The notes beneath the pieces are model-generated. The model ran no database searches, was not told the origin of the DNA, and was given only the letters and a program-made list of their open reading frames with translations. 64,000 nucleotides of DNA from an uncultured Gammaproteobacteria bacterium (GTDB taxonomy: Bacteria; Patescibacteriota; Patescibacteriia; 2-01-FULL-39-33): the NCBI GenBank assembly GCA_964536975.1, contig CAZHYS010000003.1, positions 15,419 to 79,418 on the forward strand. The letters are read 5' to 3'. The translations under genes and the position numbers were made by a program. Below, piece by piece: positions 7,728 to 53,992 of the stretch (positions are counted from its first letter, which is position 1; every line of letters starts with the position of its first letter).

Positions 7728-7833
7728 GCCCCCCCTCCTTGTTTGAAGGAGGGGGAAGGGGGGAGGTTTTAAAGTATTAAAATTAGGTTTATTCTAACCC
7801 TCTCCTATCCTCCCCCTTCAGACAAGGGGGAGG
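7728..7833. repeat. two copies of the CCCCTCC...GGAGGGG hairpin repeat
   Basis: Copy 1 is ccccctccttgtttgaaggagggggaaggggggagg. Copy 2 is cctcccccttcagacaagggggagg. Confidence 0.7.
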
Positions 7834-11062: not shown

Positions 11063-13750
11063 ATGTCCAAAATAGAACTGCCAAAATCGTATGACGCGTC
11101 GCTGGTAGAAGACGCGATTTACAAGTCCTGGGAGGAGTCGGGCTTTTTTAATCCTGACAATCTACCTGGTCGGCGGAAAGAAAAATTCGTCATCTCTATG
11201 CCGCCGCCCAATGTCACCGGCATTCTTCATCTTGGCCACGCTTTGGAAAATTCTTTGATGGATGTGGCGGTTCGCTATCAGCGGATGAAGGGCAAGAAAG
11301 CCTTGTTAGTGCCGGGCACCGATCATGCCGCTATCGCTACCCAAGCCCGGGTGGAAGATATGTTGAAAAAAGAGGGCATCAAAAATCCTCGGCAAGAGCT
11401 CGGCCGGGAAAAATTATTGGCAAAAATTCGCGAGTACGCCGAAAGTTCTAAGAAAACAATTTTATCGCAAATAAAGAAAATGGGCACCAGCTGTGACTGG
11501 TCGCGTTTGGCCTACACTTTTGATGAGCAAAGATCAAAAGCGGTTAATACCTTATTTGAAAAGATGTATAAGGATGGTTTGGTTTATCGCGGTTATCGGG
11601 TGATTAATTGGTCGGTCAAAGGGCAATCAACCTGTTCAGATGATGAGCTGGTGTATATTGATCAAAAAACCAAAGTTTGGACATTTAAATACGCCAAAGA
11701 TTTTCCCATTCCGATTGCCACTACTCGGCCGGAAACCAAGCTAGGCGACACGGCAGTGGCCGTCCATCCCGACGACGAACGCTACCAAAAATATATCGGC
11801 CAAAAATTTACCGTGGATGTCGGCGCCAGAAATCCGCTGACAATTACGATTATTGCTGACAAGAATGTTGATCCGGCTTACGGTACTGGCGCGGTTGGCG
11901 TTACTCCGGCGCATAGCCAGATTGACTATGAAATGTATCAGGCCAACAAAGATATTGGCATTATTCAGGTAATTGGCTCCGATGGGCGGATGACTCCGGC
12001 GGCGGGAGCGGCTTACGCCGGTTTGACTATTGGTGAAGCGCGGGAGAAATTTGTCGCTTGGCTCAAAGAAAATGATTTATTTATCAAAGAAGAAGAAATT
12101 ACCAACAGCGTCGGCACTTCTGATCGTTTTGGCGACGTGGTGGAATCACTGCCGATGGAACAGTGGTTTATTGATGTCAACAAAGAAATTCCCGGCCGTG
12201 GTAAAAGTTTGAAAGATTTGATGCGCGAGGCAATAACTACTGGTCACAACGGCGACAAAAATAAAATTATTAATATTACACCGGAAAGATTTAAGAAAGT
12301 TTATTTGCAAAGAATTGATAATCTATATGATTGGAATATATCCCGGCAGATTTGGTGGGGACATCGGATTCCAGTGTGGTACGAGAAAAATTCAAATGTC
12401 AAAAGTCAAAATTCAAAAGCCGACAAAGAAGATATTTATATCGGCGAAAATCCGCCGACAGAAGGAGAGTGGATTCAAGATGAAGATACTCTGGATACCT
12501 GGTTCTCTTCCGGTTCCTGGACTTTTTCCACGCTTGGTTGGCCCCAAAGAACCAAGGATCTCAAAGAATTTCACCCAACGACTTGGATGCAAATGGGTTA
12601 TGAGATTATATTTTTGTGGCTGGTTAGAATGATTTTACTTTCCACCTACGCGCTGGATGATATTCCTTTTCAAGATGTTTATATCCATGGCATCCTGCGT
12701 GACAAAAACGGCAAAAAGTTTTCCAAGTCGGCCGGCAATGGCCTGGACCCCTTGGAAATTATCGGTCAATATGGCACCGATGCTTTGCGACTGTCTCTTA
12801 TCAAGGGTATTACTCCGGGGAACGACGCCAGGTTTTATGAAGAAAAGGTGGCGGGCGCCCGGAATTTTGTCAATAAATTATGGAATATTGCCAGATATAT
12901 CTTACAGACTGTTGATGATGTAAAAATTATCAAAAAAGAACCCAAAACCAGAACACTTGCTGATGAGTGGATTTTACGCGACTTGTCTTCCGCTATTACC
13001 GCCGCCACGCAAGCGCTGGACGATTATTCTTTTTCATCAGCCGCGGAGAAGCTCCACGAATTTACCTGGAATGATTTTGCCGATTGGTATCTGGAGATCG
13101 CCAAGATTGAAGGCGGCAAAGATGAGATTCTGCTCTATGTCCTGCGGAACTTATTGAAATTGTGGCATCCATTTTGTCCTTTTGTCACGGAAGAAATTTG
13201 GAAAAACCTTCATGACAAAGATTTGTTAATAGTAGAAAAATGGCCGACTGTTTGGATTGATTCGGGTAAAAAGAGCCAAAAAATCAATGAAGACATAGAA
13301 TGTTTTATCGGCGTAGTCAAGGCCATTCGCAATTTGCGCAGCGAATCCAACATTGAACCGGCAAAATTAGCCGCGGTGAAAATAATCGCCAAGGAGAAAA
13401 AGGACTTGCTGGCCAGTCAGCAGGAAATAATTAAAAAATTATCTCGCTGTGAAAGTATAGAGATAATAGACGATGCCCAGCCGATCAAAGACAGCGCCGT
13501 CGCGGTTGTCGGCGGGGTTGAGGTTCATCTTATTCTGGCGGGACTTATAGATATTGCCGCGGAGAGACAAAGGCTGGAAAAAGAAATCGTTCAAGCGGAG
13601 AACTATATCAAAAATATAAATCTCAAATTGTCCAACAAGCAGTTCATTGACAACGCGCCCAAGGATGTGGTAGAAAAGGAGCAGGAGAAACTGGCCGAGC
13701 AACAGAGCCGGCTGGAAAAACTGAAAACTCAACTGGAAAAACTTGCTTGA
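11063..13750 (+). CDS. valS: valyl-tRNA synthetase
   Basis: It has HIGH-region PPNVTGILHLGHA and KMSKS-region KFSKSAGNG. The 895-aa length and C-terminal coiled-coil are typical of ValRS. Confidence 0.85.
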   Translation: MSKIELPKSYDASLVEDAIYKSWEESGFFNPDNLPGRRKEKFVISMPPPNVTGILHLGHALENSLMDVAVRYQRMKGKKALLVPGTDHAAIATQARVEDMLKKEGIKNPRQELGREKLLAKIREYAESSKKTILSQIKKMGTSCDWSRLAYTFDEQRSKAVNTLFEKMYKDGLVYRGYRVINWSVKGQSTCSDDELVYIDQKTKVWTFKYAKDFPIPIATTRPETKLGDTAVAVHPDDERYQKYIGQKFTVDVGARNPLTITIIADKNVDPAYGTGAVGVTPAHSQIDYEMYQANKDIGIIQVIGSDGRMTPAAGAAYAGLTIGEAREKFVAWLKENDLFIKEEEITNSVGTSDRFGDVVESLPMEQWFIDVNKEIPGRGKSLKDLMREAITTGHNGDKNKIINITPERFKKVYLQRIDNLYDWNISRQIWWGHRIPVWYEKNSNVKSQNSKADKEDIYIGENPPTEGEWIQDEDTLDTWFSSGSWTFSTLGWPQRTKDLKEFHPTTWMQMGYEIIFLWLVRMILLSTYALDDIPFQDVYIHGILRDKNGKKFSKSAGNGLDPLEIIGQYGTDALRLSLIKGITPGNDARFYEEKVAGARNFVNKLWNIARYILQTVDDVKIIKKEPKTRTLADEWILRDLSSAITAATQALDDYSFSSAAEKLHEFTWNDFADWYLEIAKIEGGKDEILLYVLRNLLKLWHPFCPFVTEEIWKNLHDKDLLIVEKWPTVWIDSGKKSQKINEDIECFIGVVKAIRNLRSESNIEPAKLAAVKIIAKEKKDLLASQQEIIKKLSRCESIEIIDDAQPIKDSAVAVVGGVEVHLILAGLIDIAAERQRLEKEIVQAENYIKNINLKLSNKQFIDNAPKDVVEKEQEKLAEQQSRLEKLKTQLEKLA

Positions 13751-44404: not shown

Positions 44405-44790
44405 CCATTTTCCCTCCCCTTTATAAGGGGAGGGCAGGGAGGGGTATTATCACCCTGTCCGCCTTTATATTACGAACGAGGGAGCCTTTATAATTCTTCC
44501 CCCTCCTTACGAAGGAGGGGGTAGGGGGAGGTCAGATTAATTTATCCCCCCAATTTTTCCTCCCCTTACCAAGGGGAGGAGCCTGCCCTGAGCGAAGCCG
44601 AATGGGTATCTCCCCCCCCCTTGTTCTAAAGAAGGCATCTCTGTTCTTCCCCCTCCTTACGAAGGAGGGGGTAGGGGGAGGTCAGATTAATTTATTTCCA
44701 CCGCCCCCGCCAAAACCGATTACAATTTTGGCGACCCCTCCTTCGGACAAGGAGGGGTAATAAAAATACGAGGGGAGGGTTTTTTATGTG
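44405..44790. repeat. cluster of at least 5 CCTCC hairpin repeats incl. an exact 54-bp duplication (44504-44545 = 44644-44697)
   Basis: Member sequences are ccctcccctttataaggggaggg, ccccctccttacgaaggagggggtagggggagg (twice), cctccccttaccaaggggagg and cccctccttcggacaaggagggg. The shared motif cctgccctgagcgaagccgaatgg is also at 52150 and 57590. Confidence 0.8.
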
Positions 44791-44805
44791 TAATAGATGT
44801 GATTG

Positions 44806-44841
44806 ATCTCCGGAGATGTCTCCATAGATATCTCCGGAGAT
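44806..44841. repeat. left boundary palindrome atctccggagat-gtctccatagat-atctccggagat
   Basis: It contains two perfect 12-bp palindromes. The right-hand counterpart is at 50951-50974. Confidence 0.7.
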
Positions 44842-44910
44842 TTTTAGTTTGACTTTTGGAGCCGAAAGTGGGAAAATTATGGTATTAATTTAATTCTTGT
44901 TTCCAAAATT

Positions 44911-46944
44911 ATGGCAAAAATCTTAGAAATCATCAAAGACTCAAGTTATAATCTTTCAATTTTTGATCAGAAACTGATTGACGAGCTGGAAGGTAAAGTC
45001 ACCACAAAAGACGGCAAATCTTATGTTGTTTGCGCTATCCGAGATAAAGAAATAATTTTGAAGCCGGAGGAGGTTGTCCGCCAGCTCTATGCGATGAAAC
45101 TGCTTGAAGATTACGGCTATCCAAAACAAAGAATCAAATTTGAACACGCAATCCATTTTGGCCGTGAGGTAAAATCTGCCGACATTGTTATTTTTGACAA
45201 AGACCGCCCGACTGTTGAATACATCATTGTTGAAATTAAAAAACCAAAACTCCAAGACGGAAAAAACCAGCTCCGCTCCTACACCAACGCCACTGGTGCG
45301 CCGATTGCCGTTTGGACCAATGGTGGACAAATTTCGCATTACAACCGCAAAGACCCAAATTACTTTGAAGACATTACCGATATTCCAAAAGCCGACCAAA
45401 CGCTTGAAGATATTTTGAAAGAAAGATTTACTCTTAAAGACTTAATCATCAAAGACAAAATCCCGAACGAGGGGAAATCGCTCAAAACCATTATTCAGGA
45501 AATGGAAGATGAAGTTTTGGCAAATGCGGGCGTAGATGTCTTTGAAGAAGTTTTTAAACTTATTTTCACCAAACTGTACGATGAATTACAGAGCAAAAAA
45601 GACAAAATGCGTCTGGAAATTTATCTTGAGGATAAATTAAGCAAAGAAGATCGCGGAGATTATGACAAAGTAAAAGAAATTTTGGCAAAAATTGACGATT
45701 CCAGTTTCAGAGTTTTGGAATTTAGAAACACAGGTCAATCCGAGAGCGAACTAAAAAATAAAATTCAAAAACTTTTTGACGAAGCCAAAGCCAAATGGCC
45801 GGGCGTTTTTGACGAAGCAAGCCAAATTCAGCTTTCGCCCTCTCATCTTTCCGTCAGCGTTTCCAGTTTGCAGGATATAAAACTTTTCAATTCCAATCTG
45901 CAAATCATAGACGAAGCCTTTGAATACTTGGTCAATAAATCATCAAAAGGCGAAAAAGGCCAATACTTCACGCCTCGTCATGTGATTGATATGTGCGTCA
46001 AAATGCTCAATCCGAAAGCTGGCGAATACATGGTAGATACTGCCGCCGGTTCTTGCGGATTTACCGTTCATACGATTTTTCAAATCACCGGACATTTATT
46101 CCAAAACACCGACATTTCCGAGGAAGAAAAAGAAAATGTGCTTAAAGTATTCGGTATTGATTTTGATGAAAAAGTCGTGCGCGTTGCTCGCACTTTAAAC
46201 TTGATCGCCGGAGACGGAAATACCAACGTTTTACATCTCAACAATCTTGATTATGAACGCTGGAATGAATCAATCCAAAATCGCGACTGGCTGGAAGTGT
46301 ACGGAGCGGGATTAAAACGCCTCGAAGCTCTACAAAAAGATAAAAGTTCCTACAAAGAATTTAATTTTGATATTCTCATGGCAAATCCGCCATTTGCCGG
46401 AGACATCAAAGAATCGCGCATAATCCACAAATACGATCTTGGCTACAACGAAAAAAACAAACCAAAATCAAAAGTTGGGCGCGATATTTTGTTTATCGAA
46501 AGAAACTTAAACTTTTTGAAGCCGGGCGGAAGAATGGCGATTGTTTTACCACAAGGCCGTTTTAATAATACTTCTGACAAGGCAATTCGCGAGTATATCG
46601 CCGAAAAAGGCAGAATCCTTGCCGTAGTCGGGCTTCATGTAAACACTTTTAAACCGCACACGGGAACAAAAACCAGCGTGCTTTTTGTGCAGAAATGGGA
46701 CGACAAGCTTTGCCCGAAAGTGGAGGATTATCCGATTTTCTTTGCCGTTTCCGAAAAATCCGGCAAGGACAATTCCGGCGAGTATGTTTTCGTCAAAAAC
46801 GGCAACAATCAGCCGAAACTAGATAAAAATGGGCACTTGATAATCAATCATGACTTGCACAATCACGACGGCGAATTGCCCGACGGCGTAGCGGAAAAGT
46901 TTATTGAATGGGCGAAGTCGGAAAAATTAAGTTTTTGGAAATAA
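44911..46944 (+). CDS. restriction-modification fusion protein: N-terminal PD-(D/E)xK (HsdR_N-like) domain + gamma-class N6-adenine methyltransferase (BcgI-like Type IIB / Type I HsdM-like)
   Basis: It has the nuclease-like motif ADIVIFD...EYIIVEIKKP. The MTase motif I is VDTAAGSCGF and motif IV is NPPF (LMANPPFAG). No HsdR is nearby. Confidence 0.7.
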   Translation: MAKILEIIKDSSYNLSIFDQKLIDELEGKVTTKDGKSYVVCAIRDKEIILKPEEVVRQLYAMKLLEDYGYPKQRIKFEHAIHFGREVKSADIVIFDKDRPTVEYIIVEIKKPKLQDGKNQLRSYTNATGAPIAVWTNGGQISHYNRKDPNYFEDITDIPKADQTLEDILKERFTLKDLIIKDKIPNEGKSLKTIIQEMEDEVLANAGVDVFEEVFKLIFTKLYDELQSKKDKMRLEIYLEDKLSKEDRGDYDKVKEILAKIDDSSFRVLEFRNTGQSESELKNKIQKLFDEAKAKWPGVFDEASQIQLSPSHLSVSVSSLQDIKLFNSNLQIIDEAFEYLVNKSSKGEKGQYFTPRHVIDMCVKMLNPKAGEYMVDTAAGSCGFTVHTIFQITGHLFQNTDISEEEKENVLKVFGIDFDEKVVRVARTLNLIAGDGNTNVLHLNNLDYERWNESIQNRDWLEVYGAGLKRLEALQKDKSSYKEFNFDILMANPPFAGDIKESRIIHKYDLGYNEKNKPKSKVGRDILFIERNLNFLKPGGRMAIVLPQGRFNNTSDKAIREYIAEKGRILAVVGLHVNTFKPHTGTKTSVLFVQKWDDKLCPKVEDYPIFFAVSEKSGKDNSGEYVFVKNGNNQPKLDKNGHLIINHDLHNHDGELPDGVAEKFIEWAKSEKLSFWK

Positions 46945-46970: not shown

Positions 46971-48053
46971 ATGAAGAAAAAAAATATTGAAGAATTAAAT
47001 AATGAATTTTTTGAAAAAGAAGATTCTGACGATGAATCTTTAAAACTTAAAGGGCCAATTATTAGTTATGGGGCGGACTACACTCTCGATTCAATTCGAC
47101 AGTACGTAAATGAGAGTAAGCAAATTATTGTACAGCCAAGCTTCCAAAGAAAATTTGTTTGGGATATAAAAAAGGCCAGCAAATTAATAGAATCTTTCAT
47201 TCTTGGTTATCCCGTGCCGAACATTTTGCTTGGGAGAGATCCTGATACTGAGGTCATGGAAGTAATAGATGGCCAGCAGAGAATTTTATCTATATGCGAC
47301 TTCTTTAAGGGCAGATTTAGAGACGAAAAAGTTTTTAAGTTAGCTGGCGATATTGACCAAAAATTTTTAAACAAAACCTTTGACGACCTAGATGAAGCTA
47401 TTCAAAAGAAATTAAGAAACGCGGTTTTGAAGGCTGTGGTCTTTGTCTATCCAAAAGATGACCCAAATATAAAATTTACAGCATTTCAACGTATTAACAC
47501 GGGGAGCGTTGTTTTAAACCAGCAAGAAATCAGAAACTGCATTTATGGGGGATCGTTAAATGATTTACTATTTAAAATAAATGAATACAACGAAGAATGG
47601 AGAGAACTCCTTGCTAAAAAACCGGATAAAAGAATGAAGGATGTAGAAACAATCTTGAGATTTTTTGCCGCTTACTTTAAAGGAAAAGATTATGAAAAGC
47701 CAATCACTAAATTTCTTAACGAATTTATGAATAAGAATAAAAATCTTTCTGAAGAAAAAGGAGCCGAATGGCAAGAATTATTTAACCAAACACTATCTAT
47801 CATTGTAAAAAATATTGGTAGCTCATTTCCCCGCACATCAAAATCAAAAACATTTAATAGAGCAGTTTTTGAATCTGTTATGACCGCCATAGCAGAACTG
47901 AAGAAAGAAAATAGGCTAAAAGTCAAATATTTAAAACGAAACTATACCAAACTAGTAGAAGATCCTAATTATCTTGATTCGGTAACTTCACAAACTTCCG
48001 ACAAGAAAAACTATAAAAACAGGATTGAAATAGCAATTAAAATGCTCTCGTGA
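46971..48053 (+). CDS. DUF262 (ParB/Srx-like NTPase/nuclease superfamily) domain protein
   Basis: The DGQQR motif (VIDGQQRILSI) is present. The ORF track starts at 46908, overlapping the RM gene stop. I use the ATG at 46971. Confidence 0.65.
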   Translation: MKKKNIEELNNEFFEKEDSDDESLKLKGPIISYGADYTLDSIRQYVNESKQIIVQPSFQRKFVWDIKKASKLIESFILGYPVPNILLGRDPDTEVMEVIDGQQRILSICDFFKGRFRDEKVFKLAGDIDQKFLNKTFDDLDEAIQKKLRNAVLKAVVFVYPKDDPNIKFTAFQRINTGSVVLNQQEIRNCIYGGSLNDLLFKINEYNEEWRELLAKKPDKRMKDVETILRFFAAYFKGKDYEKPITKFLNEFMNKNKNLSEEKGAEWQELFNQTLSIIVKNIGSSFPRTSKSKTFNRAVFESVMTAIAELKKENRLKVKYLKRNYTKLVEDPNYLDSVTSQTSDKKNYKNRIEIAIKMLS

Positions 48054-48063
48054 TTTTATATGT

Positions 48064-48624
48064 ATGAACGTTATTTTGGAAAGAAAAAAATATGTTGTTC
48101 GATTACTCGAGAATATAGAGAATTATCCTTCTACCAATCAATTCAAGCAAGAAATGATGACCTTTTCGTATGTTATAGTTTGTGGCGCTATTGAATTTAT
48201 GACAGAAACCATAATACAAGATTGGTTGAGTAAAACAATCAAACATCATAAAAGCTCATCCTACTATCGGGGGAGAAAATATGTTCAATATTTTTTAGAC
48301 ATTCAATCTCAAGCGCGAGAAAAAAATATTGACGATTTTCATAGTACAAACTTAGATAGCATTAGAAATCTTATTAAAGAGATGGCGGGAGAAACAGCGC
48401 GGAATAAATTTAATAACTTGTTTCAAAGTGCTCAAAACACTTTGGCATTGCAGCCGGATTTAAACGAGAGACTTAAACGAATTACCGATACTCGTCATTA
48501 TTTAGCCCACGGACAAAAAGTCCCAAATGATATACAACCCAATGTCCGGGAATTAAGAGAAGATTTTCTTTTTATATACAAGCATATTATAAATAATATC
48601 AAAAAATGTTTACCAAAAGTATAA
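48064..48624 (+). CDS. hypothetical protein, putative HEPN-like (Rx4H motif RHYLAH near C-terminus)
   Basis: It is alpha-helical with a C-terminal R-x4-H motif. It sits between the MTase and S subunit, like the abortive-infection and PrrC-like passengers of Type I loci. Confidence 0.35.
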   Translation: MNVILERKKYVVRLLENIENYPSTNQFKQEMMTFSYVIVCGAIEFMTETIIQDWLSKTIKHHKSSSYYRGRKYVQYFLDIQSQAREKNIDDFHSTNLDSIRNLIKEMAGETARNKFNNLFQSAQNTLALQPDLNERLKRITDTRHYLAHGQKVPNDIQPNVRELREDFLFIYKHIINNIKKCLPKV

Positions 48625-48631
48625 AATAACT

Positions 48632-50050
48632 ATGCAATATTCAGTTGTAAAATTCAAAGGAGTTTTAGTCGATAATGACATATTCAGATTCGATGCTGAT
48701 TATTTTTATCCAAAATCATACAACCTTTATAAAACGATAATAAATAAAAATTTTGCAAGAGTGAAAGAAAGTTTTAATGTTACAAAATTAGCTGGTTTTG
48801 AATACACCAAATATTTTACTGATCCAAATATCAATTCAGACGATTTCTATATTGTTTTAACCAGTAAGAATATTCAAAACGAAGAATTGGTCTTAAATGA
48901 ATATCTTAAAATTGACAAAAAAGTTGCTGACGAATTTTTGAAGCGTTCTAACCTTAAAAAAGGAGATGTTGTTTTGTCATATACTGGGGAATATAGAAGA
49001 GCATTAGTTCTAGAAGAGAACGATTTTCAACTTGGACCAAATATCTGCCTCATTCGTAGCAAAAATAAAAATATCGATTCTTATTATTTATCTACTTTTT
49101 TAAATTCTAACGCTGGTCAGCTTTTACTTGATCGTGAAAAAACACTTTCTGCACAACCTACTGTCGCGATGTCAAGAATAAGAGAAATACCAATTCCGGT
49201 GTTAGATATAGATTTTCAAAATCGAATTGGTGAAATTATTACATCATCAAAAACAAAAAGAAAATCTGCAAACAATCTCTATTTCCAAGCCGAACAATTA
49301 CTCCTTTCCGACTTGGGGCTTTTGGACTGGAAGCCAAAGCACGAACTGGCTTTTGTCAAAAACTTTTCCGCAACACAAGAATCCGAGCGTTTTGACGCAG
49401 AGTATTTTCAACCAAAATACGAGGAAATCGTTGATGCAGTGAAAAAATACAAAGGTGGATTTGATGAATTGGGCAATTTGGTAAAAATCAAAGACAAGAA
49501 TTTTACGCCCAAAGACAACGAGCAATACAAATACATTGAGCTTGCCAACATTTCATCAAACGGCGAAATAAATGGCTACATTGAAAATTTTGGCAATGAA
49601 CTGCCGTCAAGAGCGCGTCGTAAAGTACAAAAAGGCGATCTGATTGTTTCGTCCATTGAAGGATCACTTGAAAGTATTGCTTTAATAACGGAAGACTGGA
49701 AAAACGCTTTATGCTCCACCGGATTTTTTGCTGTCAATTCAGATAAAATTAATTCCGAAACCTTGCTTATTATATTAAAAACAAAAATCGGGCAATTGCA
49801 ACTAAAGAAAGGTTGCAAAGGAACAATTTTAACCGCTATCGGCAAAGAGGAATTGTCCAAAATAGTTTTGCCAAAAATTGATTCAAAAACGCAACAAGAA
49901 ATCAAAAAGAAAATAACTGAGATGTACGAAACGAAAAAATTATCTAAATCATTACTTGAAATTGCCAAGCGAGGCGTGGAAATGGGAATAGAAAAAGACG
50001 AGCAAGAAGCAGAAAAATGGATCAATAAAGAGGTTAAAAAAATTAATTAA
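48632..50050 (+). CDS. hsdS: restriction-modification specificity (S) subunit with two TRDs
   Basis: It has the HsdS/BcgIB-like duplicated target-recognition architecture and conserved spacer helices. Confidence 0.75.
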   Translation: MQYSVVKFKGVLVDNDIFRFDADYFYPKSYNLYKTIINKNFARVKESFNVTKLAGFEYTKYFTDPNINSDDFYIVLTSKNIQNEELVLNEYLKIDKKVADEFLKRSNLKKGDVVLSYTGEYRRALVLEENDFQLGPNICLIRSKNKNIDSYYLSTFLNSNAGQLLLDREKTLSAQPTVAMSRIREIPIPVLDIDFQNRIGEIITSSKTKRKSANNLYFQAEQLLLSDLGLLDWKPKHELAFVKNFSATQESERFDAEYFQPKYEEIVDAVKKYKGGFDELGNLVKIKDKNFTPKDNEQYKYIELANISSNGEINGYIENFGNELPSRARRKVQKGDLIVSSIEGSLESIALITEDWKNALCSTGFFAVNSDKINSETLLIILKTKIGQLQLKKGCKGTILTAIGKEELSKIVLPKIDSKTQQEIKKKITEMYETKKLSKSLLEIAKRGVEMGIEKDEQEAEKWINKEVKKIN

Positions 50051-50053
50051 CAT

Positions 50054-50950
50054 ATGTCCACCTACTACAACCCAAACAGAGACGCCTCTTGGAACTATGG
50101 CGGAAATAATTGGAAATTAAGCCGGTCAAAGATTGATTTGTTTTTGGAATGTCCAAGATGTTTTTATTTGGATAATAAACTCGGCACAAAGCGAGTGCCC
50201 GGATTCCCTTTTTCTATAAATAGCGCGGTGGATTATCTTTTAAAGCAGGAGTTTGATTCCTATCGTGTTAAAAACGAACAACATCCACTTCAAAAAGAAT
50301 ATGGTATAGATGCTCGGCCAATGTCGCACGCCGAGCTGGATGAATGGCGGCGGAATTTTGGCGGCGTCAGATATCTGCACGAACCGACCGGACTGTTGGT
50401 GACCGGCGCGATTGATGATTTGTGGGTGACTATCCCTCCCACCTCCCCTAGCCCCTCCTCGGGCAGGAGGGGAAAGTTAGAATATTCGGCAAACCCCTCT
50501 GTGTCTCCCCTTGGAAAGGGGAGAAAGTCAGAAGATTTGGCAAACCTCTCCGCGTCTCTCCTTGGAAAGGGGGGAAAGTTTGAGCCGGAATGTATTGTGG
50601 TTGATTATAAAGCTACAGCCAAAGATGAGGCCGTAAAGGAATTAGATAAAGAGTGGCAAGATGGCTACAAACGGCAAATGGAGGTGTACCAGTGGCTACT
50701 GCGGAAAAATGGTTTGAAAGTCTCTGATGTTGGTTATTTTGTTTATTGCACCGGCAAAATGGATCGCCAGGCTTTTGACAAGAAGATTGAATTTGATGTT
50801 AATTTAATTGAACATAGAGGTGATGATTCTTGGGTAGAGAAAACTCTTTTTGACATCAAGAAGTGTCTGGACGGCGACGTCATCCCGAAGTCTGGCAAAA
50901 GTTGTGATTGGTGCGCTTATTTCGCGGCCAGAAAAAAATCAGAAAAATAA
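50054..50950 (+). CDS. Cas4-like / RecB-family PD-(D/E)xK nuclease with 4-Cys cluster, carrying an in-frame insertion of CCTCC hairpin repeats
   Basis: The N-terminal CPRCFY and C-terminal CDWCAY form a CxxC pair. The core reads IVVDYK and the QxxxY-like motif is MEVYQWLL. The inserted repeats lie at 50440-50590 inside the frame. Confidence 0.55.
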   Translation: MSTYYNPNRDASWNYGGNNWKLSRSKIDLFLECPRCFYLDNKLGTKRVPGFPFSINSAVDYLLKQEFDSYRVKNEQHPLQKEYGIDARPMSHAELDEWRRNFGGVRYLHEPTGLLVTGAIDDLWVTIPPTSPSPSSGRRGKLEYSANPSVSPLGKGRKSEDLANLSASLLGKGGKFEPECIVVDYKATAKDEAVKELDKEWQDGYKRQMEVYQWLLRKNGLKVSDVGYFVYCTGKMDRQAFDKKIEFDVNLIEHRGDDSWVEKTLFDIKKCLDGDVIPKSGKSCDWCAYFAARKKSEK

Positions 50951-50974
50951 ATCTCCGGAGACATCTCCGGAGAT
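50951..50974. repeat. right boundary palindrome atctccggagac-atctccggagat
   Basis: It matches the left boundary at 44806-44841. Confidence 0.7.
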
Positions 50975-51058
50975 CGCCAGTTGATTTTTGGTGAATAATG
51001 TGAAAAGATTATAATTGGTAAGAATACAATTAATATATTGGTCGGTGATATTTTAATT

Positions 51059-51559
51059 ATGCATGACAAAGAAAAAAATTACGCTTTTATTGATAGCCAA
51101 AATCTGAACCTGGGAATTCAGAGCTTGGGGTGGAAGTTGGATTACAAAAGATTTAGGATTTATTTGCGGGAGAAGTATGGCGTTGAAGTTGCCTATTTGT
51201 TTATTGGCTATATACCAGGAAATCAGGATTTATATTCATCGCTTCAATCTTGCGGGTATGTTTTGGTTTTCAAGCCGACCATTCCCGATCAGAATGGAAA
51301 TATAAAAGGAAATGTTGATGCCGACTTGGTTTTGCAGGCGTTATTGGATTATGAAAAATATGACAAGGCAGTTATCATCACAAGCGATGGAGATTTTTAT
51401 TCTTTGGTTAAATACTTATATCGGCAGGGCAAATTAAAATTTGTCATGAGCCCATATATCAAAACTTGTTCCATATTGCTCAAGAAAACAGCACAAGAAA
51501 GAATTATTTTTATGGATAATCTAGAGAAAAAACTTAGTTATAATAAAAAACACCGCTAA
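51059..51559 (+). CDS. NYN/LabA-like PIN-fold domain protein (putative RNase)
   Basis: It has YAFIDSQNL, DADLV and ITSDGDF motifs typical of NYN domains. Confidence 0.6.
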   Translation: MHDKEKNYAFIDSQNLNLGIQSLGWKLDYKRFRIYLREKYGVEVAYLFIGYIPGNQDLYSSLQSCGYVLVFKPTIPDQNGNIKGNVDADLVLQALLDYEKYDKAVIITSDGDFYSLVKYLYRQGKLKFVMSPYIKTCSILLKKTAQERIIFMDNLEKKLSYNKKHR

Positions 51560-51962: not shown

Positions 51963-52322
51963 GACCTCCCCTACCTCCTTCTCGTATTTTTATTACCCCT
52001 CATTGTTTGAAGGAGGGGTCGTCAAAATTGTAATCAGTTTGATTTTTCCTCCCCCTTGTTTGAAGGGGGAGGACAGGAGGGGGTGAAAAAATATTAATTA
52101 GACCTCCCCTTACCCCCTCCTTCAGACAAGGAGGGGGAAAAGATGCCAGCTCGGCTTCGCTCAGGGCAGGCTCCCTCCTCCATCCGCCAAAGGCGGACAA
52201 ATGGACAAGGAGGGGGAATAAATCCTGTATCTTTCCCTACCCCCCCCTCACCCCTAATTTTTAGCCCCTAACCCCTAATCGTTAAACGCTAACAGCTAAT
52301 CGCTAATTGCTAATCCCTGTCC
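51963..52322. repeat. cluster of CCTCC hairpin repeats + ctaatcgctaattgcta word repeats (left flank of helicase gene)
   Basis: There are at least 4 hairpin copies, and ccctaacccctaatcgttaaacgctaacagctaatcgctaattgctaatcc runs up to the ATG. Confidence 0.75.
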
Positions 52323-52324
52323 AA

Positions 52325-53992
52325 ATGACCCAAAACGAAGCGTTGGAAATTTTGAAGCTCGGCCACAATGTTTATCTCACCGGTTCGGCCGGCAGTGGCA
52401 AGACATATTTGCTCAACAAGTATGTCGGTTTTTTGAAATCCGCCGGCGCGTCAATCGGCATCACCGCTTCCACCGGCATTGCCGCCAGCCACATCGGCGG
52501 CGTCACCATTCATTCCTGGGCCGGCATCGGCATCAAGGATCGGTTGTCAAAAGGCGATCTCTCCGACTTGCGGCGCAACAACCGAGTGCATCATCGGCTG
52601 GCCAAGGCTGCGGTTCTTATTATTGACGAAATATCAATGCTGGATGCCAAGCGGCTGGATTTGGCGGATATAGTTTGCCGCCGGCTGCGTGAAGACGACC
52701 GGCCGTTCGGCGGCTTGCAAGTGGTGTTGTGCGGCGATTTTTTCCAGCTCCCGCCGGTGAACCGCGGCCCGGGAAAAACCGATTTCGCCCCCGCCTCGGC
52801 GGCTTGGCAAGAATTGGATTTGAAAGTCTGCTATCTGACCGAACAGCATCGCCAGACCGATGACGGCTTTTTGAAAGTTCTAAACGACATCCGCTCCGGC
52901 CTCGCCAATGACGAGACCAAAAAGATTTTAGCCAGCCGGCAGGATCGCGAACCGGCTGGCGATGTTTTTGCCACCAAGCTTTATTCGCACAATTTCAATG
53001 TTGACGCGGTTAATGATTTTCATCTGGCGCAAATAGACGAAGAATCAAGAGTGTATCCGATGTCCGGCTACGGCTCTCATCGGCTGATCGCCGATTTGAA
53101 AAAGAGCTGTCTGGCCAAGGAAGACTTGGAGCTCAAAGAGGGCGCCGCCGTGATGTTTGTCAAAAATAATTTTGAAGAGGGCTACACCAACGGCACGCTC
53201 GGAACGGTGGTCGGCTTTGACGAAGGGAGCGGTTATCCGGTAGTGCGGATAAAATCCGGCCGGAAAATAATCGCCTCGCCGGTTTCTTGGGCGTATGAAT
53301 TGGACGGCGAGGTGATAGCGGTCATCCGCCAGGTTCCCCTGCGATTGGCTTGGGCGATTACCATTCATAAGAGCCAAGGCATGAGCTTGGACGCGGCGGA
53401 AATTGATTTGAGCCGATCATTTGAACGGGGGATGGGCTATGTCGCCCTCTCGCGCGTGCGGTCGCTCTCCGGCATCAAGCTGCTCGGCCTCAATGATTTG
53501 GCGATCAGGGTAAACGAAGAAATACTTCGGCTGGATCAGGATTTGATGGCGCAATCGGAAACGCTCGCGGCCCAGATGCGTGCGGCTGATGGGGCGGAAA
53601 TCGGGGCGAGGCAGGCCGCTTTTTTGCGCGCCATTTCCTCGGCCGATGGGGAGAACAAAGGGGAGAGCAAAAAGGCTTCGCCCAAAAAAGCCAAAGGCGA
53701 AACATACCAAGAGACGAAAAAATTGGTGTTGCAAAAAATGTCCCTTGCCGATATGGCCGCCGCTCGCGGCCTGGTTGAGGGGACGATCATCAGCCATTTG
53801 GAAAAATTGTCGGCCGGCGACAAGCAGCTGGACTTAGATTATTTGCGGCCGGACAGTGATCGATTGGAAACGATCGGGGCGGCGTTTAAAAGGACTGGCG
53901 ACATCGCCCTGGCGCCGGTCCGCGATCTGCTTGGCGAGGATTTTTCTTTTGAGGAATTGCGTTTGGCCAGATTGGTTTTGCGCTTGCTTTAG
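52325..53992 (+). CDS. PIF1/RecD-family (AAA_30) ATP-dependent DNA helicase
   Basis: It has the Walker A motif GSAGSGKT, motif II LIIDEISM, and a C-terminal Pif1 2B/HTH-like region. Confidence 0.75.
   Translation: MTQNEALEILKLGHNVYLTGSAGSGKTYLLNKYVGFLKSAGASIGITASTGIAASHIGGVTIHSWAGIGIKDRLSKGDLSDLRRNNRVHHRLAKAAVLIIDEISMLDAKRLDLADIVCRRLREDDRPFGGLQVVLCGDFFQLPPVNRGPGKTDFAPASAAWQELDLKVCYLTEQHRQTDDGFLKVLNDIRSGLANDETKKILASRQDREPAGDVFATKLYSHNFNVDAVNDFHLAQIDEESRVYPMSGYGSHRLIADLKKSCLAKEDLELKEGAAVMFVKNNFEEGYTNGTLGTVVGFDEGSGYPVVRIKSGRKIIASPVSWAYELDGEVIAVIRQVPLRLAWAITIHKSQGMSLDAAEIDLSRSFERGMGYVALSRVRSLSGIKLLGLNDLAIRVNEEILRLDQDLMAQSETLAAQMRAADGAEIGARQAAFLRAISSADGENKGESKKASPKKAKGETYQETKKLVLQKMSLADMAAARGLVEGTIISHLEKLSAGDKQLDLDYLRPDSDRLETIGAAFKRTGDIALAPVRDLLGEDFSFEELRLARLVLRLL

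Follow-up and report, generated by a model that had tools for sequence, protein, structure and literature searches.

The window considered here is the whole stretch of 64,000 nucleotides taken from contig CAZHYS010000003.1, and the genes of interest lie on its forward strand. The first of these genes (44911..46944, +) has an ATG start and encodes a protein of 677 amino acids (aa), the RM subunit, which comprises a nuclease domain, a helical connector, a methylase domain, and a C-terminal tail. A second gene (48632..50050, +) encodes a specificity (S) subunit of 472 aa with two target-recognition domains (TRDs), which matches the PADLOC model Specificity_I. These two genes belong to a row in which the RM, DUF262, HEPN, S, Cas4-like, and NYN genes are all co-oriented and tightly spaced. 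The RM and S subunits quite probably constitute a motor-less restriction-modification (R-M) enzyme of the Type IIB design, that is, the "RM + S" arrangement of BcgI and BsaXI.

The RM and S subunits

In the RM protein, Pfam places HSDR_N_2 on residues 52-159 (E 8.1e-27; 93.9 bits, where the cutoff is 25) and N6_Mtase on residues 332-611 (E 3.4e-34), and both matches are far beyond chance. The Eco57I model was also matched, while HsdM_N, the domain typical of the Type I HsdM proteins, was not listed in the Pfam scan of this protein. A single chain carries an N-terminal PD-(D/E)xK endonuclease domain and a gamma-class N6-adenine methylase, as in the Type IIB enzymes, and an earlier note on this DNA, which had described the 677-aa open reading frame (ORF) in these terms, proved to be exact in its coordinates. 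The methylase domain is encoded at 45904..46743 (+) and has structural matches to both BsaXI and HsdM. The PADLOC model MTase_I (PDLC03034) also covers the RM protein over nearly its full length, with an E value of 1e-288.

The methylase motifs can be read directly in the translation, with motif I, D376-T-A-A-G-S-C-G-F384, encoded at 46036-46062, and N492-P-P-F495 encoded at 46384-46395. Motif I precedes the NPPF motif, which is the gamma-class order, as the earlier note had stated, and the residues of these motifs are invariant among the RM relatives in an alignment of 86 members.

The S subunit is covered in both halves, with Specificity_I matching residues 135-465 (E 1.5e-33) and other models matching residues 33-221; chains of HsdS and S.BsaXI in the Protein Data Bank (PDB) are matched by it as well. 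A Type I-like S subunit with two TRDs is thus present, as proposed previously, and is predicted to read a bipartite target, although it is the third gene downstream of RM, separated from it by two others, and not the fourth. The pair also combines an HsdM-type gamma-class N6-adenine methylase with a two-TRD HsdS, as the Type I systems do.

The comparison was extended to 87 related loci, each taken with flanks of up to 10 kb on either side. An S gene was found in 77 of the 88 sources (the related loci and the window), and where the RM protein is 85-96% identical to that of the window, the S subunit is only 34-63% identical. As far as the sequences indicate, such divergence is what an R-M system with a repeatedly changing target would be expected to show.

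The nuclease domain and the predicted structure

The nuclease (R) domain is encoded at 45064..45387 (+; residues 52-159, HSDR_N_2), with its putative catalytic or coupling residues encoded within 45142-45282. The translation provides the motifs D91, E108-I-K110, and Q120xxxY124, and the six residues E78, D91, E108, K110, Q120, and Y124 do not vary in any of 86 relatives at 59-96% identity. In these same relatives, the mean identity to the query is 79% in the N domain versus 81% in the methylase. A more distant set was obtained by searching 1.84 billion cluster representatives, which returned 712 proteins at E <= 1e-30, and the residues were checked in those 68 representatives whose N domain was well covered (32-71% identity). 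All six putative residues are kept in 63 of these 68 proteins, while catalytic residues have been lost in the other five. Judging from these alignments, the nuclease domain is under selection, and is as conserved as the methylase.

This conservation bears on the possibility that the nuclease-like domain is only a structural relic of a Type I M-S methylase, which the earlier note had offered as its alternative, and which is disfavored by the retention of the catalytic residues, whose loss had been named there as a reason to abandon the nuclease reading. A related explanation is that the pair is an orphan M·S methylase that only modifies DNA, serving in epigenetic control or anti-restriction, with a nuclease-like domain that is an inactive relic. 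The five representatives with lost catalytic residues do indicate that inactive variants arise, but the window protein and its 86 relatives have all of these residues intact, in a domain that is as constrained as the methylase, and the rapid turnover of the S subunit, the controller-like helix-turn-helix (HTH) genes described below, and the location in islands of defense and mobile genes all fit a toxic restriction activity. On this evidence, and on that from Zymomonas presented below, an orphan methylase appears to be improbable.

The kinship of the nuclease domain can be approached by two different routes. A hidden Markov model of the N-terminal 335 residues was compared with the PDB sequences, and made a marginal match to the Vibrio HsdR 3h1t (E 0.94), in which D91, E108-x-K110, and Q120/Y124 are paired with the nuclease motifs of HsdR; given its marginal score, this alignment serves only as a guide to the motifs. 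By its sequence, the N domain is an HsdR-type nuclease. When the profile of the family N domain was aligned with residues 47-116 of BsaXI by hhalign, the probability was 86.5% (E 4.6e-6), and E78 was paired with E73 of BsaXI, and E108 and K110 with E105 and K107. In BsaXI, the substitution of E73, D90, E105, or K107 by alanine abolishes cleavage (PMC11997821).

An AlphaFold (AF2) model of the RM protein, built from a diverse alignment, reached a pLDDT of 88.1 and a pTM of 0.81, while an earlier model, built from a shallow alignment of 56 sequences in two tight clades, had a pLDDT of 50 and was discarded. The modelled N domain has the canonical topology of alpha-beta-beta-beta-alpha-beta, with helices (H) and strands (E) at H52-66, E75-83, E86-95, E103-109, H114-128, and E132-136. 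In this model, D91 lies in strand 2, E108 in strand 3, and K110 just after it, with the QxxxY motif in the next helix.

The best sequence match of the RM protein in the PDB is the Type IIB enzyme RM.BsaXI (E 8.5e-17), which was also the first hit when the model was searched with Foldseek (E 1.8e-23), with 699 aligned columns that extend over all three regions of the protein. Behind it were Type I HsdM proteins (approximately 1e-15, over some 430-570 columns), together with the Type IIG/IIL enzymes DrdV and BpuSI. In the work on BsaXI, the chain of the "RM + S" Type IIB enzymes is described as an R domain, then a helical connector, then an M domain; the methylase resembles that of EcoKI, and the S subunit is bound by a C-terminal helix (PMC11997821). 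The window protein agrees with this description.

The absence of HsdR and the wider RM family

A list was made of every other ORF of 250 aa or more in the 64-kb window, and the large ones were scanned, which revealed no HsdR or ATP-dependent translocase, in agreement with the earlier note. The large proteins scanned have housekeeping roles (ValRS, PNPase, PPDK, GroEL, and a ComM-like protein), and a neighbor of 808 aa is an alpha/beta hydrolase. A helicase of the superfamily 1 (SF1), of the Pif1/RecD type and with a C-terminal HTH_40 domain, was recognized by Pfam at 52307-53992 (TTG start, GC content 0.54), outside the low-GC island that contains the RM gene and beyond its right-hand repeats. 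This helicase was rejected as an HsdR or as a component of the R-M system, given its SF1 type, its position beyond the island, and its absence from all 87 related loci, where it is not a conserved partner.

In the related loci, the screen for helicases covered the neighboring proteins of at least 650 aa, which form 45 clusters. The ResIII, DEAD, or Helicase_C domains were found in only three of these clusters, which corresponds to at most three of the 87 loci with a candidate HsdR nearby, the finding that the earlier note had named as a means of refuting its proposal. The scanned clusters with members at more than one locus have other domains or, in the case of a 991-aa cluster (c16), no Pfam match, so the three clusters with helicases are most likely of a single locus each. 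The large neighbor clusters of the Poribacteria loci, c16 among them, were considered as possible HsdR proteins, and those with Pfam matches proved to be GlyRS, NACHT, TPR-TIR protease, sulfatase, and similar proteins. Nearly all of the 87 loci have an S gene downstream of RM, either as the very next gene or with one to three variable genes in between.

The RM family includes more than 8000 database proteins, and their annotation is nearly always "Type I M protein". Some of its members are single chains in which the R and M regions are fused to one TRD, such as those of loci L084 (947 aa) and L067 (941 aa), and a chain of 1179 aa on the plasmid pAQ6 of Picosynechococcus PCC 7002, which shares 60% identity with the window protein, combines HSDR_N_2 and N6_Mtase with two Methylase_S stretches. 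Many of the RM cluster representatives have a length of 1100-1210 aa. A Klebsiella IncF plasmid has a lone pair of RM (674 aa) and S genes. These self-contained R-M-S chains and the lone pair argue that no further subunit is needed.

It is very improbable that the window pair is a classical Type I M2S methylase relying on an HsdR supplied from another part of the genome, with the N domain acting only in docking or as a structural element. Such an interpretation would agree with the public annotation and with the PADLOC and REBASE-derived models, which say "Type I M protein", with the Type I-like methylase domain and S subunit, with the 64-kb extent of the genome portion inspected, and with the sharing of HsdR between Type I systems, which is known and is discussed in PMC8432527. 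It is opposed by the lack of an HsdR in the window and the near-absence of large ResIII/DEAD helicases within 10 kb in the related loci, by the occurrence of the family both as self-contained fusions and as lone RM + S pairs carried by plasmids and mobile elements, and by the persistence of the E-D-ExK-QxxxY residues down to 32% identity, which would not be kept by a purely structural domain.

The most informative relative is a Zymomonas mobilis protein of 672 aa (P0180), which is 52% identical to the window RM over 690 columns, that is, its full length. It retains both the E-D-ExK-QxxxY residues and the NPPF motif, the S gene follows directly, there is no HsdR at the locus, and the genes lie on an integrative element. 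From its organism, size, and neighbors, and from its place close to the chromosome end, this protein is probably ZMO1934, which Lal et al. (PMC8432527) described as an HsdR_N domain fused to HsdM. According to these authors, ZMO1934 and ZMO1933 methylate CAGN4CTG, and restrict a plasmid with one site 5-fold, and this restriction was not relieved when the only HsdR of Z. mobilis was deleted (PMC8432527), which also counts against an HsdR borrowed by a Type I methylase. Assuming that P0180 is ZMO1934, both bipartite methylation and HsdR-independent restriction would thus have been demonstrated by others in a relative with 52% identity. Lal et al. (PMC8432527) also cite Bower et al. (PMC6158711) for the view that fusions of this kind are a step from Type I to Type IIB.

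The restriction measured in Zymomonas (PMC8432527) is a further argument against a modification-only methylase, although its weakness can be read in favor of that alternative, as can the engineered fusions of an HsdR nuclease and HsdM, which methylated DNA but did not restrict it (PMC6158711).

If the Type IIB design applies, two RM chains would bind one S subunit to form (RM)2S, with the C-terminal tail of each RM packing on conserved helices of the S subunit, and the two TRDs reading the bipartite target. The gamma-class methylase domains would then methylate one adenine in each half-site using S-adenosylmethionine (AdoMet), and mark the DNA as self, while unmethylated DNA would be cut close to the site by the N-terminal HsdR-type PD-(D/E)xK domains, held on the helical connector. 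Cleavage would proceed without ATP-driven translocation, and without HsdR. The (RM)2S stoichiometry and the cutting at a fixed distance on both sides of the site are steps that we only infer. The preference for a Type IIB organization over classical Type I, expressed in the earlier note, is nevertheless supported by BsaXI being the best full-length structural match, by the R-M-S fusions, and by the HsdR-independent restriction published for the Zymomonas system.

A number of points weigh against this interpretation. The N-domain profile did not find BsaXI at E < 1 in the PDB, and in sequence alone the N domain resembles the N terminus of HsdR (HSDR_N_2) more than it does BsaXI. In both sequence alignments, D91 is two residues off D90 of BsaXI, so the equivalence of the two aspartates rests on the shape of the motif rather than on superposition. 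The overall TM-score against BsaXI reaches only 0.43, with a high root-mean-square deviation, values that are expected of a model with flexibly linked domains, yet are no proof of the same assembly. The knob and paddle of BsaXI are absent from the window RM (677 aa, versus 916 aa in BsaXI), and the absence of HsdR covers only 64 kb of the source genome. The 5-fold restriction in Zymomonas is weak, and the failure of the engineered fusions to restrict (PMC6158711) means that the architecture alone is no proof of nuclease activity. A published mapping of cleavage was not found for any member of the family, nor cleavage biochemistry for the window protein or a close relative.

The RM protein is 85-96% identical across very distant lineages, which include several groups of Patescibacteria (the Candidate Phyla Radiation, CPR), Peregrinibacteria, and metagenome-assembled genomes that bear the labels Gammaproteobacteria, Fusobacteriales, and Thiotrichales, as seen in the related proteins P0001-P0120 and the loci L008-L015, L030, and L060. 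The RM genes of these lineages are alike while their S genes differ, which points to a recent and wide horizontal spread of the RM gene. At one locus (L001; GCA_900198705.1, FZPS01000042.1, 3792-12862), a 93%-identical RM gene lies directly after phage-like genes, namely one for a portal protein and one for a major capsid protein like that of an L. lactis phage, and is followed only by a truncated S-like ORF of 266 aa; this copy is perhaps prophage-borne and partly decayed.

Embedded genes, the low-GC island, and known systems

The two genes between RM and S encode a DUF262/GmrSD_N (ParB-like) protein of 360 aa (46971..48053, +; Pfam GmrSD_N, E 7e-29) and a RiboL-PSP-type HEPN protein of 186 aa (48064..48624, +; Pfam HEPN_RiboL-PSP, E 7e-8), which has the Rx4H motif R-H-Y-L-A-H. 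The DUF262 gene most probably starts at 46971, given that it is called in this way on identical metagenome contigs, and not at the ATG of the longest ORF (46908), which overlaps RM. In PADLOC, the DUF262 protein matches NsnA (E 3e-67) and PD-T4-2_A (E 4e-60), while the HEPN gene has no match to the PD-T4-2_B model, so that membership of PD-T4-2 is only partial. The adjacent, co-oriented genes for a DUF262/ParB-like protein and an HEPN protein (Rx4-6H) form a two-gene module, and the RiboL-PSP HEPN family has been recorded in an operon with ParB/DUF262 (PMC3710099).

Downstream of the S gene are a Cas4-like PD-(D/E)xK protein of 298 aa (50054..50950, +; Pfam PDDEXK_1, E 3e-11, residues 179-289) and an NYN-domain protein of 173 aa (51038..51559, +; Pfam NYN, E 2e-14), which also lies inside the island. 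The Cas4-like ORF has an in-frame insert (50441-50614) with three tandem units of 51 nt (17 aa), at 50462-50583, which are related to the hairpins of the repetitive extragenic palindromic (REP-like) type described below and leave the frame open. This insert encodes a linker rich in Pro, Ser, Gly, and Lys (approximately residues 128-180), between the N-terminal part of the protein and its PDDEXK_1 domain.

Homologues of the DUF262, HEPN, and Cas4-like genes were found in none of the 87 related loci, and one of NYN in a single locus (L015). The Cas4-like, NYN, and Pif1 proteins were rejected as a conserved substitute for HsdR, as they are not conserved across these loci. Elsewhere in the family, the RM-S junction holds DUF4145, RhuM/Fic, YhcG, AAA_15/AAA_21, an OLD-like TOPRIM ATPase, PDDEXK_3, Fic, or a cyclase-like protein, and variable cargo at this junction recurs across the family. 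The embedding of accessory genes in this way has been described for the Type I, BREX, and Hma systems (bioRxiv 10.1101/2024.01.29.577857). Given the lack of homologues of the pair at the related loci, the varied cargo, and the known operon of ParB/DUF262 and HEPN, the DUF262 and HEPN genes are read as an accessory cassette, which would be an independent defense unit, co-transcribed with the R-M genes and not a core component of the enzyme. A functional coupling of this pair to the RM complex is possible.

The GC content falls from 0.48 to 0.32-0.40 over 44-51 kb, compared with approximately 0.45-0.54 on either side, and the low-GC island that this defines is bounded by repeats. On the left, a palindrome at 44805..44842 consists of two copies of ATCTCCGGAGAT, as a 17-bp hairpin, some 70 nt upstream of the RM start. 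On the right, two tandem copies of ATCTCCGGAGA(C/T) are found at 50950..50975, immediately beyond the Cas4-like stop codon. The 12-nt palindrome ATCTCCGGAGAT has four copies in the window, where 0.15 are expected by chance, and all of them are at these two boundaries, so that the pairs bracket the five-gene block from RM to the Cas4-like gene. This palindrome was present in none of the 91 loci compared, and may be a terminator or insulator hairpin, an operator, or the scar of a recombination.

Long, imperfect inverted repeats with GC-rich, REP-like hairpins are found further out, with the left arm at 44456..44772, on the left edge of the island, and the right arm at 51981..52199, on its right edge. 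Five collinear segments (I1-I5) of these arms are 75-92% complementary. The REP-like hairpins CCCCTCCTT...AAGGAGGGG and CTCCCCTT...AAGGGGAG also occur at 7732, 30766, and 41161. The metagenome contigs with an identical island are only about 7 kb in length and have the island genes only, which is consistent with assemblies that break at the flanking repeats.

The co-oriented, tight arrangement of the six genes, and the bracketing of RM through the Cas4-like gene by the same palindrome, raise the possibility that RM and S are the methylase and specificity core of a larger system, either a MADS-like one (MAD2 + MAD5) or a six-gene unit with DUF262, HEPN, Cas4-like, and NYN effectors. The nearest NCBIfam models are in fact MADS2 for RM (297 bits) and MADS5 for S (110.5 bits), and the PADLOC mad2 and mad5 models are also matched, but both NCBIfam scores are far below the respective cutoffs (an equivalog cutoff of 720 for MADS2, and 400 for MADS5), and none of the other window genes match a mad model. 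The genes that would complete a six-gene unit are missing from the related loci, with the sole exception of the one NYN homologue, the RM-S slot holds unrelated cargo elsewhere, and DUF262 with RiboL-PSP-HEPN is a known stand-alone pairing (PMC3710099), with the PADLOC match to PD-T4-2_A. The chance that the enzyme is the core of a larger system is therefore extremely slight.

No controller (C) protein is encoded upstream of RM in the 500-bp spacer of the window, which holds the REP-like repeats and the palindrome. A short HTH_3 gene lies directly upstream of RM in 11 of the 88 sources, six of which are near-identical copies of one element, and also in Zymomonas, and in sequence its product resembles the controller proteins of Type II systems.

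A protein of approximately 200-270 aa, with no significant Pfam domain, is often found after S or between RM and S in the related loci, as at 11407-12198 of the Zymomonas locus (L090), at 11389-12180 of that of the Klebsiella plasmid (L089), and in 10 loci as cluster c1 (for example, L070, 13501-14160). Its C-terminal Rx4H (RNALLH or RCNVVH, by eye) suggests an HEPN-like fold, and the protein may be a frequent accessory of the RM family. The gene of 263 aa located 3' of S in Zymomonas and Klebsiella was compared with the Cas4-like gene as a possible relative and found to be unrelated, and the neighbor cluster c25, with a BRO-N-type look by eye, has no significant similarity to the Cas4-like protein.

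More broadly, the large RM family may be a distinct, motor-less branch of the R-M systems that keeps an HsdR-type nuclease, including QxxxY, with the RM-S junction as a docking slot for swapped immune cassettes, and with DUF262 and HEPN held inactive by RM·S and firing as a second line, in the manner of PrrC, when a phage inhibits the R-M enzyme, although this extended scheme is rather unlikely as a whole.

The label of "Type I methylase" on thousands of relatives hides what are likely to be complete, self-sufficient RM + S restriction systems. The recognition of these pairs changes the inventories of defense systems, notably in the small genomes of the Patescibacteria (CPR), and explains barriers to transformation, as in Zymomonas. 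It also points to many candidate Type IIB-like enzymes, whose S subunits could be swapped, as a source of new specificities. Earlier publications already describe the architecture of a nuclease-methylase with an S subunit, together with its likely function, and the window system adds no new mechanistic category.

In the classical Type I systems, such as EcoKI and EcoR124I (HsdR2M2S), the methylase fold, the two-TRD S subunit, and the logic of the bipartite target are shared with the window system, as are the HsdR-type nuclease motifs (D, ExK, QxxxY) and the presence of accessory defense genes between M and S. These systems differ in that HsdR, a subunit with a helicase motor of the superfamily 2 (SF2) and a nuclease, is encoded with hsdM and hsdS, whereas the window system has none, and has the nuclease fused to the methylase. 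The DUF262 and HEPN pair is located between the methylase and S genes, as in the paradigm of PrrC in EcoprrI and other embedded defenses, but while such embedding is documented in Type I systems (PMC3710099; bioRxiv 10.1101/2024.01.29.577857), the host here is of the motor-less RM + S type.

In the MADS system, the MAD2 match spans residues 37-632 of RM, including the N domain, and MAD5 is an S subunit. The system methylates a bipartite site, and mad5 can be deleted only when mad2 or mad3 is also deleted (bioRxiv 10.1101/2023.03.30.534895), which hints, by analogy, that related methylase subunits may be toxic without the S subunit. The other essential genes of MADS (mad3, mad4, and mad6-8) are absent from the window and from the related loci.

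The HsdMSc system of Z. mobilis ZM4 (ZMO1934 + ZMO1933) has its domains in the same order and its S gene next to RM, as seen in P0180, which is probably ZMO1934. It belongs to a proteobacterial clade, and unlike the window system, has an HTH gene upstream, nothing between RM and S, and, downstream, the gene of 263 aa with an Rx4H by eye and no match to an HEPN family.

The likeness to the Type IIB enzymes was assessed from sequence and structure in the case of BsaXI, and from the organization only in that of BcgI A/B. The identity between BsaXI and the window RM is only about 17-23%, and the nuclease domain of the latter scores as HsdR-type (HSDR_N_2, QxxxY), unlike that of BsaXI. The Type IIB BsaXI (PDB 8w0p) nevertheless has the same N-terminal PD-(D/E)xK domain, helical connector, and gamma-class N6-adenine methylase in one chain. 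As in the window system, the "RM + S" group of Type IIB has a separate two-TRD S subunit and no translocase, and the Type IIB enzymes also have single-chain RMS versions, as does the RM family of the window.

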